NCBI GenBank assembly: GCA_045644425.1
Contig: JAZRGW010000023.1
Location: forward strand, 71,592 to 135,591
Direction: 5' to 3'
Length of the DNA: 64,000 nt
DNA from: Victivallaceae bacterium
GTDB lineage: Bacteria > Verrucomicrobiota > Lentisphaeria > Victivallales > Victivallaceae
Shown: positions 32,099 to 40,105 of the stretch, piece by piece
Position numbering within the stretch: the first letter of the stretch is position 1
Layout: the number at the start of each line of letters is the position of its first letter
Translations under genes and position numbers: made by a program
The notes under the pieces: generated by a model
The model's input: the letters and a program-made list of their open reading frames with translations, nothing else
Databases searched by the model: none
Told to the model about the DNA's origin: nothing

Positions 32099-33712
32099 TT
32101 ACTTTTTATCTGCAAGCAGTGCAGTCACTGCGTTCCAAGCAAGTTTGGGGCGACGGTACTCATCGAGGATACCCTTGTTGTTGAATCCTCTTGCCCGCCC
32201 GAAAATATGGGGGCCGGAAACATAGCTGCGGGTATCGGCAAAATGCCAGATACTTATTCCGGCACAATCATCATGCTCCAAAGCGTATTCCACACATTCA
32301 GTAAGCAATTCCGCCTGATATTCCTCTGACCAGTAAGTCTTGAGAGGATCGCGGAAACCGAGCAATGCTTCAGCACCGATCTCGGTAATGAGGAAAGGTT
32401 TATCTTTGGGCATCGCATCGGAAAGTTCCTGCAAACGCGGCTTGACCTTGTCATTGGTGTTGATACAGCCCCACTTTGAATCATACCAGCCCGGATAAGG
32501 GTTCATCGCCACGATATCCACGATATCGGTGCAGACACACTTTTCATAGCGGTTGCTGGCAAAGGTTATCGGAGTATGCGGATCGATGGAACGGATCTTG
32601 TCATACAACGCCTGAATGATCACTCTGGTTTCGGGCTTCTCACTTTCATTTTCATTGAGATAACCTTTGATGATGATACAGGGGTGATTGTAACTTGAAA
32701 TGGTGAGTTTTTCCGCCTGATCGAGCTGGGCAGCCTGAAATTCAGGAGAGTGCAGTTTGGGTGCTTTAAAATCCCAGCCGAGAGTTTCTTCCCACACATA
32801 GATACCCATTTTATCGCAGAGATCGAGCAGGGTTTTCCGCTGGGCATAGTGACTGCCGCGGACATAATTGAATCCCCCCTGCTTCAGCATCCGCAAATCT
32901 GCTGCGATCAGCTGCGGCGGCATGGCGGCTCCGGTCTGCGGATGACTTTCGTGACGGTTGAAACCGACCAGTTTGATCTTTTCGCCGTTGACAAGAATAT
33001 CTCTGCCGGATAATTCGATTTGGCGGATACCGAAAGTTTCAGTAACCTCATCGGCGGCAGTCTTGACGGTCAATGAGTGCAGATTCGGAGTTTTTTCACT
33101 CCAGAGTTTGAATTCCGGCAGTGTAACTTCCACATCCATTGCCCCATCGGCGAATTCCGCTTCAGTAACGAAACCGGTATTGAAAATAAGCTGTGCTTTA
33201 CCGGAAAAGTTCTGTGCGGCACTTGCCCGAACCCGGATTTTACCGGTACGGTAATCTTCGGTGGAGATCATCACGCTGTGAATATATTCCGCTGGAATGG
33301 ATGTCAGCGTAACATCGCCGTAAATACCGCCGTAACCGTGGAAATCGAAATACGGCTCAAAAACCTCATTGTACTTATTGCATAGAACAATGGCAAGTTC
33401 ATGTTCCTTTTCTTCACCGGCATCAAAAACGAAATTCTCCGGCAGATAGGCATATTTGATCACGCCGACACTTTTGCCATCCCAGAAAACCTCGCCGTCA
33501 AGTCCGGCCCCGTCAATAAAAAGTTTCACCAGCCCACCGGCAAAAACTTTGCGGGAAGTCACCGCAAAACCGCGTTTGCCGCAATGCGGCTCCATCAGAT
33601 CATAGCATCCGGGCACAGGCATAAATTCCGTGGTCGTAAAAGGATACTCCGGACGGGTCTCGCCGTAATAGGCGAAATCCCAAATTCCATTCAAATTATA
33701 ACACTTTCTCAT
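32099..33712 (-). CDS. Glycoside hydrolase family 2, beta-glucuronidase/beta-galactosidase-like, no signal peptide
   Basis: NLNGIWDF start region, NRHESHP, acid/base YLNENES and nucleophile ITEIGAEA, parallel to E. coli GUS NRHED / NE / TEYG. Start ATG 33712 is preferred to 33757. Confidence 0.8.
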
Positions 33713-34057
33713 AATATTTGCACCATAAATAAAACAAATACTTTTGTTCTCTATCATATTATACTCAATAAGTCCACTTTTTGCAAGAGTAATTTTTTAA
33801 CACTCAATAGCAATTTTGTCACACCTCGCATAAAATTCTATTCCCGGTACAGATCAATAAATTAAGCTGTAAAAACTCCCGGAAGAACTTGAAAAAAACA
33901 TATTCACGACTGATCTATTCGCAAATATGAAAAATTTTTAATGTTTTTTGATTTAAATACAAAAAAATCCGTAAAGATCGGAATAATTCTGCCTCTCTGC
34001 TTGATTCTGCATTGAAAATGCATTTTTTCGATTAAATCAGAGAATCAGGAGTTCAAT

Positions 34058-34183
34058 ATGATTGAAATAATAACCGCCGACATCACAAAATTGGAAGTGG
34101 ATGATATTGTCGATGCCGCCAATTATCCGCTTCCAGGCGGCGGTGGTGGTGGTGTGTATGGGGCAATTCCGGATTTTTTATAA
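34058..34183 (+). pseudogene. Macro-domain (YmdB/O-acetyl-ADP-ribose deacetylase-like) N-terminal relic, 41 codons
   Basis: An AGGAG RBS precedes MIEIITADITKLEVDDIVDAANYPLPGGGGGGVYGAIPDFL*. The pattern (I-x-G/A-D-I-T-x-x-x-V-D-x-I-V-N/D-A-A-N...GGGGV-x-GAI) is the start of a macro domain, cut off about 8 nt before the next gene's stop. Confidence 0.6.
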
Positions 34184-34190
34184 AAATCAG

Positions 34191-34775
34191 TTAAAAAGCC
34201 TGATAAATTTTTTTGATTGTTTCTGACACTATTTTTTCCGGATCATTTCCAAAGATATCCAAACCTTCAGCACAGAAAAAATAGATCTCGTCAATGCCGA
34301 AAAGAGTAGAAAAAAGGCCATTGATATAATCAAAACCAAAGTTATTTTTTCCGATATACCCGCCGGAAGTAGTCAGATAAACCACCTTTTTTATATTGGT
34401 TAATCCGCAGGGCATTCCCTTTTCATTATAATAGAACGTCAATTTATTGACACAGAGTTGTTCCATGTAAAGTTTAAGTGAAGCCGGAAAACTCATATCC
34501 CAGTACGGAGCGGCAATAACAACTTCATCTGCTGCGGCAAAATTTCTGGCAAGCTCAAAGGCAGTACCGGAAAAATCATTATCGGCTATCGCTTTTTCCC
34601 GTTCTGCCAGAGATTTCCCGGTGAGCGGATGCATTACAGTATCTTCCAAATTTACGGTTGACAACTTGCAAGATTGTGTTTCAAGAGTTTTTTTCAAATA
34701 AGCTTGTGCCAAACGATCGGTTCTGGAAGCGACATCACGCTTCACACATGCATTTACATAGAGAATATTTTTCAT
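34191..34775 (-). CDS. Flavodoxin-like fold NAD(P)H-dependent oxidoreductase (azoreductase/quinone reductase-like)
   Basis: 194 aa. MKNILYVNACVK...SRT, and VVIAAPYWDMSFPASLK, typical of the FMN-dependent NAD(P)H oxidoreductase family. AT-rich relative to its neighbours. Confidence 0.7.
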   Translation of the reverse strand: MKNILYVNACVKRDVASRTDRLAQAYLKKTLETQSCKLSTVNLEDTVMHPLTGKSLAEREKAIADNDFSGTAFELARNFAAADEVVIAAPYWDMSFPASLKLYMEQLCVNKLTFYYNEKGMPCGLTNIKKVVYLTTSGGYIGKNNFGFDYINGLFSTLFGIDEIYFFCAEGLDIFGNDPEKIVSETIKKIYQAF

Positions 34776-34892
34776 TTAAAATTTTTGCTTTACTTAATTT
34801 TAATTGTTTCAATAATAACATAATTATCTTTCACAAAAATACAAATACCGGAGGCAGAATTAAAGCATTATTTTTCAATGGAATCAGAAAAA

Positions 34893-34913
34893 TGGTGGAG
34901 GTTAACAGGTGGC
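34893..34913 (-). repeat. Degenerate copy of the tmRNA 3' terminus (candidate distal att site)
   Basis: TGGTGGAGGT-TAAC-AGGTGGCG here versus TGGTGGAGGTGGCG at 37547-37560, in the same orientation. This is the 14-mer acceptor/CCA end with an 8-nt interruption. Confidence 0.4.
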
Positions 34914-35103
34914 GAAACCGAAAATCTCTGCTCCGGACTCTTATAAGTGAAAGAAATGGAAGTGAAAAAAGTTGGTTTTTACAGGGCAATGCCTGTCAAG
35001 AGAATAGCAGTAAACTCCAATCCTTGACAGCGGAAGTTTTTCACACTTTTACTGGAATGCAGAGTTGATATTCCGACAAACTTTCTGCTCAAAATATGCA
35101 AAT

Positions 35104-35173
35104 AAGTCCTTGCGGAATTATCATTTTTCAAGGACTTGACGGCACTTCCGAAACGCTCTTTTTTAAGTCCTTG
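35104..35173. repeat. Cluster of three AAGTCCTTG / CAAGGACTTG motifs, left flank of the zinc-ribbon gene
   Basis: AAGTCCTTG at 35104-35112, CAAGGACTTG at 35129-35138 and AAGTCCTTG at 35165-35173. The first two form a 9-bp inverted repeat. Confidence 0.8.
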
Positions 35174-35259
35174 TAGTTTTTAGTAGTTTTCGTAGTTGAA
35201 AAAAAATTTTTTAGATTTATATTACAACAATATCAAAATTTAATTTCAACAGAATCAGT

Positions 35260-37158
35260 ATGAAAACAAAAATAGAAAAAAGTAGTTTTTCAAGTCAATA
35301 CCCTGATATTGCGGCTGAATGGAACTATGAGAAAAATGCACTCTTGACTCCACAGATGATTTCATACGGAAGTGGTAAAAAAGTTTGGTGGAAGTGTTCC
35401 TGTGGGCATGAATGGCAATCTACTGTGTCTAATAGAGTTTTAGGGAATGGTTGTCCTTATTGCTCCAATCAAAAAGTATTGCCTGGTTTTAATGATTTGG
35501 TTACTACACATCCCAATCTTGTCAAAGAATGGGATAGTGTAAAAAATGGGGATTTTACCCCAAAAATGATTGTGGCTGGATCTGATATCAAAGTTTGGTG
35601 GATGTGTAACATTGGGCATTCATGGCGAGCTAGGATTAAATCCAGAGCAAGAGGCTCAAAATGTCCAATTTGTCAAGGGCGGTCAATCTTGCCTGATTTT
35701 AATGATTTTGCTTTTAAATTTCCCGAAATTGCCAAGCAATGGAATTACGAAAAGAATGGAGATTTGTTACCCGAAATGATTTCTCCGGGAAGTCATAAAA
35801 AAGTATGGTGGGTATGTGAGAAAGGGCATGAATGGCAAGTTGCTGTTTATCATCGTAGCAGAGGGAGTCGTTGTCCAATATGCTCTGGACAAAGAATTCT
35901 TCCGGGATACAATGACCTTCAGACACAAAATCCATTATTAGCACTAGAATGGAATTACGAGAAAAACGGGATTTTTACTCCGGACAAAGTTGCACCAAGT
36001 AGTAATATGAAAGTTTGGTGGAAATGTGCAAAAGGGCATGAATGGGAAGCTGCGGTAAATAGTCGTAACAACTTAGGTAATGGTTGTCCAATTTGCGTAA
36101 ATCAAGTTGTCATTGCCGGAGTGAACGATTTGAAAACAACGAATCCAGAATTGGCTGCGGAATGGGACTATGAAAAGAATGGTAGTTTAACGCCACAAAT
36201 GTTTAGTGTTGGAAGTGGCAAAAAGGCTTGGTGGAAATGTATAAATGGACACGAGTGGTTTTCTAGTATTTCTCACAGACATAAAGGTGCTGGTTGTCCA
36301 TATTGCTCCAATCAAAAAGTGTTGCAGGGGTTTAATGATTTGTCAACAACAAATCCAGAATTTGCCGCAGAATGGAACTATGAGAAGAATGGTAGTTTAA
36401 CGCCACAAATGTTTAGTATTGGAAGTGGCAAAAAAGTTTGGTGGAAATGCTCAAAGGGACATGAATGGCAAGTCGCAATCGCAAGCAGGTTAGGGTGTCC
36501 AATATGTTCTCATAAGCAAGTTTTGAAAGGCTATAATGATCTTGCTACTCTCAATTCAAAAGTCGCCGAAGAATGGAATTATGATAAAAACGGGACTCTT
36601 ACACCAGAAATGGTTACTGTCGGAAGTAACAAGTATGTTTGGTGGCGTTGTAAAAATAATCATGAATGGCGAGCACAGGTTAATGCACGAACACAAGGAA
36701 TTGGCTGTGCTAAGTGCTCAGCTCATTTAAGAACATCATTTCCAGAACAAGCAATATTCTTTTATGTCAAAAAAACTTATCCAGATGCTATTAGTGGATA
36801 TAGAGATTTATTTAAAAGGCAGAAAACAGTAATGGAATTAGATATTTTTATTCCGTCAATAAAAACTGCCATTGAATATGATGGAATAGTTTGGCATTCT
36901 TCCGAGAAAACAATGTTACGGGAAAGAAAGAAGTATCGTATTTGTAAACAAAATGAAATTCATTTGATTCGTATAAAGGAAAAAATTACAGCATCCTCTA
37001 ATTTAACAGGCGATGTGATAATTGCTTCAGATTATTCTGCCAATTATAGAAATTTTGGGAAAACACTAGATGAATTGAGAAAATATATTCATCTGACAGA
37101 AGATATTGATATTACAAGAGATCGCAGTGCAATTGTAGCAAGTTACATGCCGATTTGA
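35260..37158 (+). CDS. Seven-fold zinc-ribbon (DUF4379-like) repeat protein with C-terminal Vsr/DUF559-like PD-(D/E)XK endonuclease-fold domain
   Basis: Seven ~70-aa repeats of W(N/D)YEKNG.LTP......GS.KKVWWKC..GHEW.........G.GCP.C..Q.VL.G.NDL. The tail ELDIFIPSIKTAIEYDGIVWH...IHLIRI resembles the D...E-x-DG-x2-H nuclease core. The gene is markedly AT-rich. Confidence 0.8.
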   Translation: MKTKIEKSSFSSQYPDIAAEWNYEKNALLTPQMISYGSGKKVWWKCSCGHEWQSTVSNRVLGNGCPYCSNQKVLPGFNDLVTTHPNLVKEWDSVKNGDFTPKMIVAGSDIKVWWMCNIGHSWRARIKSRARGSKCPICQGRSILPDFNDFAFKFPEIAKQWNYEKNGDLLPEMISPGSHKKVWWVCEKGHEWQVAVYHRSRGSRCPICSGQRILPGYNDLQTQNPLLALEWNYEKNGIFTPDKVAPSSNMKVWWKCAKGHEWEAAVNSRNNLGNGCPICVNQVVIAGVNDLKTTNPELAAEWDYEKNGSLTPQMFSVGSGKKAWWKCINGHEWFSSISHRHKGAGCPYCSNQKVLQGFNDLSTTNPEFAAEWNYEKNGSLTPQMFSIGSGKKVWWKCSKGHEWQVAIASRLGCPICSHKQVLKGYNDLATLNSKVAEEWNYDKNGTLTPEMVTVGSNKYVWWRCKNNHEWRAQVNARTQGIGCAKCSAHLRTSFPEQAIFFYVKKTYPDAISGYRDLFKRQKTVMELDIFIPSIKTAIEYDGIVWHSSEKTMLRERKKYRICKQNEIHLIRIKEKITASSNLTGDVIIASDYSANYRNFGKTLDELRKYIHLTEDIDITRDRSAIVASYMPI

Positions 37159-37217
37159 TGTTCTATGCTCTTTGAAAAATCATTGTATTGAGTAGAAAAA
37201 CAAGTAGCGGAGAAGAT

Positions 37218-37359
37218 AAGGACTTACCTTTGGCAAAATGAAAGACGGAGCAGGAGTGGCGGAAAACCAACTTTTGCACTGTCTATTTTTTACATCAAGT
37301 CCTTGTATTACCACTTTTTGTAAATCATTGATAATAAACAATAATGCTCCAAGGACTTG
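37218..37359. repeat. Cluster of three AAGGACTT / CAAGTCCTTG / CAAGGACTTG motifs, right flank of the zinc-ribbon gene
   Basis: AAGGACTT at 37218-37225, CAAGTCCTTG at 37296-37305 and CAAGGACTTG at 37350-37359. The segment CAAGGACTTGCGTCCAGAGCGTTTC mirrors AAGTCCTTG...GAAACGCTC of the left flank in inverted orientation. Confidence 0.8.
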
Positions 37360-37488
37360 CGTCCAGAGCGTTTCAGAGACTTTTGCCGAAAAAGTGGTGC
37401 AAAATGCTGTTGCTGGTATGGTTGAGTATTGAGAATAGCAGTCTCCTGCTCTCCGCAGAAAAGCCGCAAGTGCCTGCAACTGTAAGCA

Positions 37489-37537
37489 CTATAAAAAGAA
37501 AATTGCCAGGGACTTTATAGTCAAGTCCTTGGCAATT
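37489..37537 (-). terminator. ssrA rho-independent terminator
   Basis: 15-bp stem AATTGCCAGGGACTT / AAGTCCTTGGCAATT (1 mismatch, 7-nt loop) starting 10 nt after the CCA end. On the minus strand it is followed by TTCTTTTTAT. Confidence 0.8.
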
Positions 37538-37546
37538 AGAAAGTTC

Positions 37547-37904
37547 TGGTGGAGGTGGCGGGAGTTGAACCCGCGTCCCAACGGGGAGCTGTGAAGATCT
37601 CTACATGCTTGTTCCATCTTCAAGTGTTTTTCGTCCTCAGTTTCGCCAATGGACAGGCAATCCCTCAGAACAGGCATTCTTTAATCTCGCCGGAAATCCG
37701 AATGCCGGAACTTCCAGCCAGGGTATTAACACGCGCCGCTTATACCTTAGTACCCGATCAGGCACAGCGACGTGGCGGGATTATGCCGCCAGAGCAAACT
37801 CTTCGTTCGCAGTTATTGTTTTAACCGGTGATTTACGAGGCCAACGGTCATCCTCGGCATGCAATCAACCCAAGTCCAGCGCCGGTCGAATCCGGAACAC
37901 CCCC
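37547..37904 (-). ncRNA. ssrA: tmRNA (SsrA), 358 nt, CCA encoded
   Basis: The minus strand reads GGGGGUGUUCCGGAUUCGACCGG...GCAUGCCGAGG...GGCCUCGUAAA...GGACGCGGGUUCAACUCCCGCCACCUCCACCA. The acceptor stem has a G3:U wobble and a tRNA-like T-arm. There is close collinearity with E. coli SsrA. Confidence 0.95.
37781..37810 (-). other. tmRNA tag reading frame: (A)ANEEFALAA-stop
   Basis: GCG AAC GAA GAG UUU GCU CUG GCG GCA UAA follows the GGCCUCGUAAAUCACCGGUUAAAACAAUAACU resume context. It has the canonical ALAA C-terminus. Confidence 0.8.
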
Positions 37905-38166
37905 TGAATCATAACATTCTGATACGACGTTTAATATAGTTCATTATGTCTTTTTTTCAATCTTTTTTATGAAAATTTACGTTTTTTTCGTAGCCGGATG
38001 TGTTTTTTGACTCTTTATTGCCGGATGATAAGAATTTCCCGCATCTGATAACGCATTTGAAAAAAATTTTCCTTTGATAACAGTAAAGTATTGTTTTTTT
38101 ACGGACTGTGAAGTATATTTATTCTCAGCAAGTCTTCAATCACAAGTTTTTTAAGGAGTTTTTATT

Positions 38167-39264
38167 ATGTTCAATAGAATTTCTGCTGTTATTCTGTTTA
38201 TTTGCACTGTTTTTTCAACACTTTCCCATGCCGCCGGAAATAAAAACGTTTCACCTGAACCGGCTCTCGAAAATCCGGATTCATGGACAATGATCGTCGT
38301 TCCCGATGTGCAGGGCTACATCAAGCTCCCCCGCAACCACGGCATCCTTGAGATCATGAATGCATGGATCGTCGAAAATATCGAAGCCATGAAGATCCGT
38401 CAGGTGCTTTTTACCGGAGACCTCACCAACCGCAACGATCTTTCCCGGGTCTGGCCCGAATACGACCAGCTTATCAGTTCCGAACAGTGGAAAGCCTTTT
38501 CACGTGCCGCAGAACGTCTTGACGGTCAAATCCCCTACATTCTCTGCACCGGCAATCACGATCACGGATACCATTCCGCTGAGAACCGCCGGTCTCATTT
38601 CAGCACCTTTTTCCCAACTGACCGCAATCCCCTCACCCGCCGTCAACTCATCGCCTGCGACTGGAATGCTTTCGGTATTGCAACTTTGGAAAATGCCGCT
38701 TATGAATTTACCGCCCCTCACCCGGACAACCGCAAATTCCTCATCATTTCTCTGCAATTCGCTCCTACCGATAAAAATCTTGAATGGGCGAAAAAACTTG
38801 CCGCAGAACCCAGATTCAAAAACCACTTCGGAATTGTTTTGACCCACTCTTATCTTGACCGTCATGGCAAACGCATCGAAAAAGAAAACTACGGCATAAA
38901 TAAACAGGGCGGCAATGCCGGAGAAGCTATTTTTCAGAAACTGGTCTACCCCTCTGCCAATATCCGCATGGTCGTCTGCGGACATATTGCCATACCGGAT
39001 AAATGGGAAGGCGGGATCTCTTTTTCAATGGACAAAAACTCCGCCGGAAAATCTGTTGCTCAAATGGCTTTCAATACACAGGCGATCGGCGGCGGATGGC
39101 ATGGTAACGGCGGCGACGGATGGCTCCGGCTGCTCGAATTCATGCCCGACAAAAAAACCATCAAGGCACGAACCTTTTCGCCGTTCTTCTATCTTTCGCC
39201 ATCCACCCGTCATCTGGCGTGGAAACATGATGAGCTCAGTGAATTTTCATTCACTCTCGAATAG
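38167..39264 (+). CDS. Secreted calcineurin-like metallophosphoesterase
   Basis: Signal peptide, then GDLTNRND, GNHDHG, VLTHSYL and VCGHIA motifs. Confidence 0.8.
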   Translation: MFNRISAVILFICTVFSTLSHAAGNKNVSPEPALENPDSWTMIVVPDVQGYIKLPRNHGILEIMNAWIVENIEAMKIRQVLFTGDLTNRNDLSRVWPEYDQLISSEQWKAFSRAAERLDGQIPYILCTGNHDHGYHSAENRRSHFSTFFPTDRNPLTRRQLIACDWNAFGIATLENAAYEFTAPHPDNRKFLIISLQFAPTDKNLEWAKKLAAEPRFKNHFGIVLTHSYLDRHGKRIEKENYGINKQGGNAGEAIFQKLVYPSANIRMVVCGHIAIPDKWEGGISFSMDKNSAGKSVAQMAFNTQAIGGGWHGNGGDGWLRLLEFMPDKKTIKARTFSPFFYLSPSTRHLAWKHDELSEFSFTLE

Positions 39265-39284
39265 AATTCCGGTAACTTTCCATC

Positions 39285-39322
39285 GGGCTGAATGCAAATA
39301 TTTGCGTCAGCCCGATTTTGTT
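39285..39322 (+). terminator. Rho-independent terminator
   Basis: GGGCTGAATGCAAATATTTGCGTCAGCCC hairpin followed by GATTTTGTT. Confidence 0.7.
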
Positions 39323-39493
39323 AAAAAACAGATCAACACCAAGTAATACGGATGAAAACTGAAACCGGAGAATTGTAAAACGCACTGTTTTTTGTGATAT
39401 ATCAGTAAAAAAACTTGATTTTTTGCACTTTTAATATATATTATCTAATTCAGCAGCATAGTTTGTAATCCATCTTATTTCAAGGTAAAATAT

Positions 39494-40105
39494 ATGTCAG
39501 AAAATAAAGAAAATACCACACAGGAAAATATCACTTCAGAACTCCCTCCGCAGGAAAATGAAGCTCAGGAGTGGAAAGATGCTTCCGGCGAAGCGGAAAA
39601 AGAGGAAAAAGCTCTTTCCGAAGTGGATAAATTGAAGGCGGAACTTGCCGCCCAGCAGGAAAAATTTGTCTATCTGCAGGCAGAATATCAGAATTTCCGT
39701 AAACGTGCCGCAAGAGATATCAGCGATGCCAGAAGTCATGCCATCGCCGATACGCTCACCCCTTTCCTCTCGGTTTCCGATTTTCTTGGCATGGCACAGA
39801 CCGCCGCTGAAAAAACCGACAATCTTGATGCCATTAAACAGGGTTTGACTATGATCATCGCCCAGTTTGATAAAGCTCTGGAAGAAATGTCCGTGCGGAA
39901 ATTTTCCAGCATCGGTGAAAAATTCAATCCCGACCTGCACGATGCCGTCGGCAGGGAATCTTCAGATTCTGTTCCCGAAGGTATCATCACCAAAGAGTGG
40001 AATTGCGGTTACAAGATCGGCGAAAAACTTCTCCGCCCTGCCCGGGTCATGGTATCTGCCGGTCCGGAAGTGCCGGCGGAAAAGGAAAATCCGGAAAAGG
40101 AGTGA
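39494..40105 (+). CDS. grpE: Nucleotide exchange factor GrpE
   Basis: Acidic N-terminus, coiled-coil, YLQAEYQNFRKRAARD and a C-terminal beta domain ...GYKIGEKLLRPARVMV. Confidence 0.9.
   Translation: MSENKENTTQENITSELPPQENEAQEWKDASGEAEKEEKALSEVDKLKAELAAQQEKFVYLQAEYQNFRKRAARDISDARSHAIADTLTPFLSVSDFLGMAQTAAEKTDNLDAIKQGLTMIIAQFDKALEEMSVRKFSSIGEKFNPDLHDAVGRESSDSVPEGIITKEWNCGYKIGEKLLRPARVMVSAGPEVPAEKENPEKE

Follow-up and report, generated by a model that had tools for sequence, protein, structure and literature searches.

A DUF4379-array protein with a Vsr/EDxHD-like nuclease tail, encoded in a variable slot next to ssrA in a Victivallaceae bacterium

Relation to described nucleases

To date, the closest described counterparts of the protein considered here are encoded by homing endonuclease genes of phage group II introns, in which three to five CapR/DUF4379/DUF723-like domains precede a C-terminal EDxHD/Vsr-like nuclease; thousands of unannotated relatives have been called 'a large unrecognized outgroup' (PMC12350094, 2025). 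The prototype of the EDxHD nucleases is I-Bth0305I (PDB 3R3P), whose active site consists of D196, N208, H213, D222, and E170; an extra conserved acidic residue has also been noted (PMC3239194). In Marseilleviridae, four DUF4379 domains are combined with a restriction-endonuclease domain (PMC5513546). The protein described in this work (P0001, 632 amino acids (aa)) is encoded by an open reading frame (ORF) at positions 35260–37158 (+ strand) of a stretch of 64,000 nucleotides (nt) from a Victivallaceae bacterium (GenBank assembly GCA_045644425.1, contig JAZRGW010000023.1), hereafter the window. It consists of seven DUF4379 modules, recognized by Pfam, and a Vsr/EDxHD-like nuclease tail. It is a CapR/DUF4379-array EDxHD/Vsr-like nuclease of already known architecture, i.e., an ordinary member of a very large and recently noticed family. 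With a probability of about 0.6, it is a homing-type site-specific DNA endonuclease whose zinc array serves a long target and whose gene forms a 2-kb cassette that has no recombinase and occupies a variable slot at the 3′ end of ssrA, the transfer-messenger RNA (tmRNA) gene. Most likely, the cassette behaves as a selfish insert.

Like the phage group I/II intron homing genes (PMC12350094), the ORF joins several zinc modules of ~60–70 aa to a Vsr-like nuclease of ~100–150 aa; unlike them, it has canonical DUF4379 modules, seven in number, and is a free-standing gene of a chromosomal islet at the ssrA 3′ end. Phage genes labeled 'Hef-like' or 'homing endonuclease' are likewise recovered by tblastn. 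With I-Bth0305I (PMC3239194), the protein has in common the fold (Z 8.4) and the arrangement of active-site residues (E...D...E-x-(N/D)...H...(D/E)...K), but the sequence identity is only ~13%, Asp takes the place of its Asn at position 208, and Glu that of its Asp as the last acidic residue. Moreover, the DNA-binding N-terminus of I-Bth0305I is formed by two NUMODs around a presumed helix-turn-helix (HTH), whereas seven zinc modules are found here. The best structural matches of the tail are Vsr (PDB 1CW0/1VSR) and a DUF559 protein (PDB 3HRL), with Z 8.6 each and common catalytic Asp and His positions; yet neither is matched through Pfam, and the present protein differs from both by its large zinc array, by its accessory and foreign character, and by the lack of any sign of mismatch repair. 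The proteins of Lausannevirus and Insectomime virus (Marseilleviridae; PMC5513546) are likened to it by domain combination alone, a DUF4379 array with a nuclease domain; they have four DUF4379 domains, come from giant viruses, and bear the annotation of putative restriction endonucleases. Thus, the preliminary description of this DNA, which was made from the letters alone and held the family to be essentially uncharacterized, is right for the array members, for which there is no assay, but not for the nuclease domain, which belongs to the characterized EDxHD family (PMC3239194), nor for the architecture, which is in print.

Zinc modules and nuclease tail

The protein has seven matches to Pfam DUF4379 (PF14311), with an E value of 2.6e-145 and 473.1 bits against a gathering cut-off of 24.5, and the units are spaced by 210, 210, 210, 213, 210, and 201 nt at the DNA level. 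The pattern WW.C...H.W...C..C, which supplies Cys-His-Cys-Cys ligands, is present in all seven, as expected from the earlier proposal of seven repeats with four metal ligands each. The term zinc ribbon used in that proposal does not fit, since DUF4379 is annotated as a 'probable treble clef zinc finger' and not as a classical zinc ribbon. Based on the DUF4379 matches, the unit register, and the ligands, modules 1 to 4 were assigned to aa 9–78 (35284–35493), aa 79–148 (35494–35703), aa 149–218 (35704–35913), and aa 219–289 (35914–36126), the last with one additional residue. They are followed by module 5 (aa 290–359; 36127–36336), module 6 (aa 360–426; 36337–36537), which has a three-residue deletion, and module 7 (aa 427–488; 36538–36723), all on the + strand. 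Module 7 is the best-conserved unit, with 81% identity to the relative P0012.

A Pfam scan of the N-terminal 485 aa gave no NUMOD or HTH match. In the proposed mechanism, the seven DUF4379 modules replace the NUMOD/HTH region of I-Bth0305I; the array would read a long DNA target, at which the Vsr-like domain would cut. Such a long target would explain why a lone nuclease is tolerated without a methylase. Should every module read a few base pairs, the family would consist of naturally modular nucleases whose targets are long and evolvable, which would be of interest for specificity engineering.

Modules 5 and 6 have an exact 33-nt tract in common (36175–36207 and 36385–36417), as noted earlier. 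The near-identity around it, given as ~65 nt, is real but extends further: 90 of the first 100 nt of the two units agree, in comparison to ~46% of the remainder, and at the protein level the N-terminal halves are 89% identical and the C-terminal halves 55%. P0012, which is 63% identical to the protein, has positional counterparts for all seven units, with common markers in unit 3 (VYHR), unit 5 (SHR), unit 6 (LGCPICS.KQVL), and unit 7 (GCAKCSA.LRTSFPEQ). Within P0012, the identity between units 5 and 6 is 57% for one half and 55% for the other. Because P0012 has all seven units and the near-identity between units 5 and 6 is confined to their N-terminal halves, a recent duplication of a whole unit is rejected, and with it the view that the gene is still duplicating internally. 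On the sequence comparison, units 5 and 6 are old units, and their first ~100 nt were homogenized by a recent partial gene conversion between neighbors. A Logan protein that is 96% identical and has one unit fewer (P0003) was considered as a copy-number polymorphism and was not counted, as it may be a repeat-collapse artifact. Logan contigs are built with a k-mer length of 31, and they break at the 33-nt tract, which is longer than a 31-mer.

The nuclease domain (aa 486–632, 147 aa; 36715–37155, + strand) was delimited from an AlphaFold2 model, structural matches, and invariant columns. Modeled with an alignment, the tail reached a predicted local distance difference test score (pLDDT) of 91.7 and a predicted template modeling score (pTM) of 0.86; a single-sequence AlphaFold2 model of module 7 plus the tail (pLDDT 33) was unusable. 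In a structural comparison with 48,161 PDB representatives, VIA-align gave Z ≥ 8 for only three chains, those of Vsr (1cw0, 8.6), the DUF559-like NGO0050 (3hrl, 8.6, with a root-mean-square deviation of 2.3 over 87 residues), and I-Bth0305I (3r3p, 8.4). The latter is also the top Foldseek match (probability 1.00, E 2e-3) and the sole match of a tail-only profile against the PDB (E 0.006). Direct sequence searches with the tail were less productive. Phmmer against the PDB returned chance-level matches only (an XkdQ-related protein, 0.019, and NDUB subunits), and the Pfam matches were below threshold, i.e., MTES_1575 (E 0.025, 15.1 bits, cut-off 38.2) and DUF2726 (E 0.08, 13.1 bits, cut-off 24.7). 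The Pfam models of Vsr (PF03852) and DUF559 did not match the protein, nor did any NCBIfam model over its threshold.

The motifs ELDIFIP and AIEYDGIVWH are located at aa 526–546. In the profile alignment, E539, D541, H546, E555, and K558 fall on E206, N208, H213, D222, and K225 of I-Bth0305I, and E539 matches its extra conserved acidic residue; D528 lies outside the profile alignment and, by position, probably corresponds to D196. Residues E41, D43, P47, E54, D56, G57, H61, and K73 of the tail (tail numbering; addition of 485 gives protein numbering) are invariant in an alignment of 27 relatives, and E41, D43, E54, D56, and H61 also in a second, domain-only alignment of 37 relatives. E496, D528, and H546 are invariant in relatives, which have either E or D, hence an acidic residue, at the final motif position. 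E496, D528, H546, and E555 thus make up the EDxHD signature, in which Glu conservatively replaces the final Asp. The codons of the candidate catalytic residues start at 36745 (E496), 36841 (D528), 36874 (E539), 36880 (D541), 36895 (H546), 36922 (E555), and 36931 (K558). Profile search and structure prediction, which the preliminary description had suggested as a check, thus gave seven DUF4379 modules and a nuclease fold with the catalytic residues in the model, and its Vsr/DUF559-like PD-(D/E)XK tail is borne out by the fold (pLDDT 91.7, Z 8.4–8.6) and these residues. A homodimer prediction for the nuclease domain gave no answer (score 0.00), which speaks neither for nor against dimerization. 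Further fold matches of the tail include RAP-type Vsr-like domains of organellar RNA-binding proteins (9g6k_L9 and 9gek_A), so that the DUF4379 and Vsr-like halves both have organellar RNA-machine relatives.

The cassette and homologous loci at tRNA and tmRNA 3′ ends

The GC content of the ORF is 37.3% (27.6% at third codon positions), in comparison to 46.4% for the 2.43-Mb genome, a value among the lowest 1.3% when the genome is divided into 1.9-kb windows, and the gene is indeed far more AT-rich than its host. It occurs in one copy in its own genome. The tail was not found in the genomes of 24 other species of the same genus that were searched, and it was found in just two of 16 more distant genomes, weakly. 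The gene is foreign and was probably acquired horizontally. The neighboring ssrA gene (37547–37904, − strand; tag ANEEFALAA), identified by ARAGORN and Rfam (RF00023, 172.8 bits), has its 3′ end facing the cassette. Homology to a sister species (G001) extends up to 35181 and sets in again at 37218. These positions enclose a variable slot (35182–37217) with the 2.04-kb cassette, which comprises a promoter-like site, the ORF, and ~55 nt of 3′ sequence; in G001, the same slot is filled by a 194-aa Sel1-repeat gene in the opposite orientation. The promoter-like site (35196–35223, + strand; TTGAAA-16-TATATT) lies within the cassette, 37 nt ahead of the ATG, and is assigned by its consensus match only (10 of 12). 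The slot is bordered by two conserved non-coding blocks, block 1 (34890–35181) and block 2 (37218–37546). The AT-rich composition, the variable slot, and the different cargo in G001 all agree with the earlier view of a foreign gene in an ssrA islet.

The locus resembles tRNA/tmRNA islands of the Islander type in its ssrA 3′ position, a candidate distal repeat of the terminus, foreign composition, and absence from the relatives searched. It differs from them in lacking an integrase, in its cargo of a single gene of ~2 kb, and in being an exchangeable cassette between conserved non-coding blocks. No integrase was found between the GH2 gene (which ends at 33757) and ssrA (from 37547). The five Phage_integrase matches of the genome are all located elsewhere, the nearest on the same contig just beyond the window, ~36 kb off. 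At 34893–34914, the ssrA 3′ terminus recurs in direct orientation and degenerate form (TGGTGGAGGT, a 6-nt gap, and GTGGCG), which makes this a candidate distal boundary of the islet.

Logan contigs from four animal-gut metagenomes, belonging to four studies, were compared with the region. Contigs with few differences span both cassette junctions, and near-identical copies are present in all four metagenomes. The summed contig depth of blocks 1 and 2 is 5–10 times that of the nuclease gene, and loose contig ends occur at 35181 and 37218, indicating that other strains or species hold other cargo in the slot. These data bear on the possibility that the ORF is a decaying remnant, i.e., the last cargo of an old ssrA island that has lost its integrase, with a nuclease that is inactive or being lost, and is now immobile. 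Such a history would account for the missing integrase between the GH2 gene and ssrA, the degenerate distal repeat, the truncated macro-domain ORF close by (~34059–34183), and the old framework to which the blocks common to sister species point. However, the 632 codons are intact, with all zinc ligands and the conserved catalytic residues kept, and both junctions are preserved in the near-identical metagenomic copies. Furthermore, sister species hold different cargo in the slot, so that exchange took place once the framework had formed, and independent decay is hard to credit for a single-gene arrangement that recurs at many tRNA and tmRNA genes of several phyla, as described below. A remnant is therefore very unlikely.

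The family is large. Among 1.8 billion cluster representatives, 2,890 representative relatives of the tail were found at E ≤ 1e-3, and at least 8,000 DUF4379-array proteins exist within one length band. They range over numerous phyla of the gut and rumen and also occur in phages and giant viruses; they differ widely in module count, and the nuclease may precede, interrupt, or follow the modules. One relative of the tail (P0125) carries CapR modules. The PHROG families matched by the protein are annotated as 'HNH endonuclease', 'endonuclease', and 'homing endonuclease', the last including phrog_3339 (5.5e-13, tail alone) and phrog_9084 (6.8e-4). A tblastn search with module 7 plus the tail gave 140 phage records, including a 'DUF4379 protein' of Listeria A511/P100-like phages, a 'homing endonuclease' of Bacillus PBS1 (1e-11), and several 'Hef-like' endonucleases.

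To place the ORF among its relatives, 80 homolog loci were collected from contigs with one genome per species; they stem from Clostridia, Elusimicrobia, Alphaproteobacteria, Spirochaetota, Saccharibacteria, and Acholeplasmatales, among other groups, and most are of gut or rumen origin. Of the 80 ORFs, 24 have a tRNA or tmRNA gene no more than 600 bp away, and in 23 (arguably all 24) of these cases the RNA gene is oriented with its 3′ end toward the ORF. For comparison, 4.3% of the ORFs in the genome of the window have a tRNA or tmRNA neighbor, which is oriented in this way in 34% of those cases. The corresponding binomial value (2e-14) overstates the significance, the species being related to varying degrees, but the effect is still large. 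The adjacent genes encode tmRNA and tRNAs for Arg, Met, Pro, Ser, Thr, Glu, Leu, Gln, Lys, Ala, and Gly. Direct repeats of 12–26 nt straddling the RNA 3′ terminus recur immediately past the ORF and bound islets of 2.1–4.5 kb in eight of the 24 RNA-adjacent loci (L025, L052, L058, L070, L074, L082, L089, and L094), at tmRNA or tRNA-Leu, -Thr, -Lys, -Met, and -Ala genes. No integrase is present within the single-gene islets of 2.1–2.9 kb. The 117 immediate neighbors of the ORFs represent 131 Pfam families, with no recurrent partner and two integrases. Among the 64 distal genes of the RNA-adjacent loci, two encode integrases and one a resolvase, the remainder being mainly housekeeping genes. How integrase-less single-gene cassettes, often bounded by repeats, move into so many tRNA and tmRNA 3′ ends is a testable question.

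Defense genes are common at tRNA and tmRNA hot spots, and the ORF, a solitary, accessory, AT-rich gene at such a site, could be a stand-alone defense nuclease against phage or plasmid DNA, either modification-dependent or otherwise foreign-selective, carried as cargo by a small integrative islet. Its fold also occurs in restriction enzymes and CRISPR-ancillary nucleases (Z 6–7.8), the Lausannevirus relative is labeled a 'putative restriction endonuclease' (PMC5513546), and the distal neighbors include one EcoRI-type methylase and one PLD-like protein. Yet no model of PADLOC-DB 2.0 matches the tail, the only hit being a weak one (PDC-M01B, 1.3e-06) over one zinc module, and neither a recurrent methylase, ATPase, or sensor nor any defense-island or partner-gene pattern emerged from the survey of the 117 immediate and 64 distal neighbors, which are mostly housekeeping genes. 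In addition, the closest annotated or characterized relatives are phage-borne homing endonucleases. A defense role is thus unlikely. Where the preliminary description had left the choice between defense, homing, and selfish roles open, the phage homing and Hef-like relatives and the like architecture in phage group II introns (PMC12350094) favor homing or selfishness, and PADLOC and the neighbors speak against defense.

The location beside tRNA and tmRNA genes, which 30% of the homologs adjoin, would also follow if the protein were directed at RNA, with modules binding structured RNA and a Vsr/RAP-like domain binding or cleaving RNA such as tRNA or tmRNA precursors. Consistent with this idea, all solved DUF4379 structures belong to mitoribosomal or assembly-factor proteins (mS66 and mt-SAF33), and the tail has RAP-type fold matches in the Toxoplasma gondii mitoribosome (Z 7.9) and FASTKD4 (Z 7.0). 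However, many RNA identities adjoin the ORFs, and 56 of the 80 loci have no tRNA or tmRNA gene nearby. Searches of other genomes of the genus did not recover the gene, which argues against a housekeeping processing factor, and in one third of the RNA-adjacent loci the ORF and the RNA gene converge and hence are not co-transcribed. The direct repeats of RNA 3′ ends indicate insertion rather than functional linkage, and the nearest sequence relatives are DNA endonucleases. Action on RNA is accordingly judged highly improbable.

As for its movement, the cassette of a homing-type endonuclease could have entered by nuclease-initiated recombination or by an integrase acting in trans. A bolder version, which we regard as doubtful, is that the cassette is an autonomous mobile element needing no recombinase: the array would recognize the conserved 3′ end of the tRNA or tmRNA gene, the nuclease would cut there, and a replacement end would be copied in. 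The cassette would bring its own copy of the last 10–26 nt of the RNA gene, so that the essential gene would be kept intact and the displaced end would be left as the distal direct repeat. If true, this would be a nuclease-driven 'target-healing' entry into tRNA and tmRNA genes across phyla, unlike tyrosine-integrase islands or intron and intein homing.

Several observations weigh against the preferred reading of a homing-type DNA endonuclease. The PDB structures containing DUF4379 are all kinetoplastid mitoribosome or assembly proteins (6yxx_E2, 6sga_Fd, 7aor_at, and 6hiv_DS), and binding of RNA or protein by the modules is possible. No cleavage activity or target site has been reported for any member with a DUF4379 array, and the last position of the active-site motif is Glu instead of Asp. 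The gene resides in neither an intron nor an intein, and direct repeats of tRNA or tmRNA 3′ ends are the classic mark of integrase-mediated integration, not of homing. At the present locus, the distal repeat consists of only 10 exact nt and 6 nt after the gap; 38 of 300 shuffled sequences score as high in a generic local alignment, which makes the repeat statistically no more than suggestive, and the 10-mer occurs five times in the genome. Finally, no empty allele joining 35181 to 37218 is listed in the four metagenome runs, where contigs cannot prove absence, so that homing into a defined site is putative.

Conserved blocks and other genes around ssrA

Block 1 is 93% identical in G001 and contains three alternating copies of the 9-mer AAGTCCTTG. 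Block 2, which includes the ssrA terminator hairpin (37501–37537), is 87–90% identical in G001 and in a third species (G017), which has it as far as the end of its contig, and contains three exact and two degenerate copies. Both blocks are as conserved between species (87–93%) as tmRNA itself. The exact copies of the 9-mer, in alternating orientation, are located at 35104, 35129, 35165, 37297, 37350, and 37523, with degenerate ones at 37217 and 37507; these six compare with 0.5 expected in the window and 11 genome-wide. One pair of copies forms the ssrA terminator stem, and copies lie at both edges of the slot. In G001 (L018), a compensatory double change turns GGACTT/AAGTCC of the terminator hairpin into GGGTTT/AAACCC, which supports the stem. 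The blocks were considered as copies of each other, which was rejected because they have only short motifs in common, and neither is repeated elsewhere in the genome. In a search of 33700–38200, Rfam recognized tmRNA only, and the blocks match no described RNA family. They could possibly be a recombination framework, a non-coding RNA, or a regulatory region. RNA sequencing runs held only ~5% of the words of the region, probably those of tmRNA.

Beyond block 1 lies an intact flavodoxin-like gene (34191–34775), which is as AT-rich as the nuclease ORF. The nuclease gene had been described as the only intact cargo gene of the islet; this is correct for 34893–37547, but the flavodoxin-like gene stands just outside. 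In two metagenomes (X2 and X6), contigs join 34895 to 34055 with five other letters between, skipping this gene. The joint fits a real cassette boundary at 34895; the flavodoxin-like gene looks like a second present-or-absent cassette, and several cassettes may thus be lined up on the 3′ side of ssrA. Next to it, the short ORF at 34059–34183 has a macro-domain-like start (MIEIITADITKLEVDDIVDAAN...) followed by a Gly run and a stop, and is probably a truncated remnant. On the 5′ side of ssrA, the stretch 37911–39608, with a Metallophos gene (38167–39264), has no counterpart in two other genomes of the genus (G020 and G015), in which grpE-dnaJ lie within ~275 bp of ssrA, indicating that both sides of ssrA are variable.

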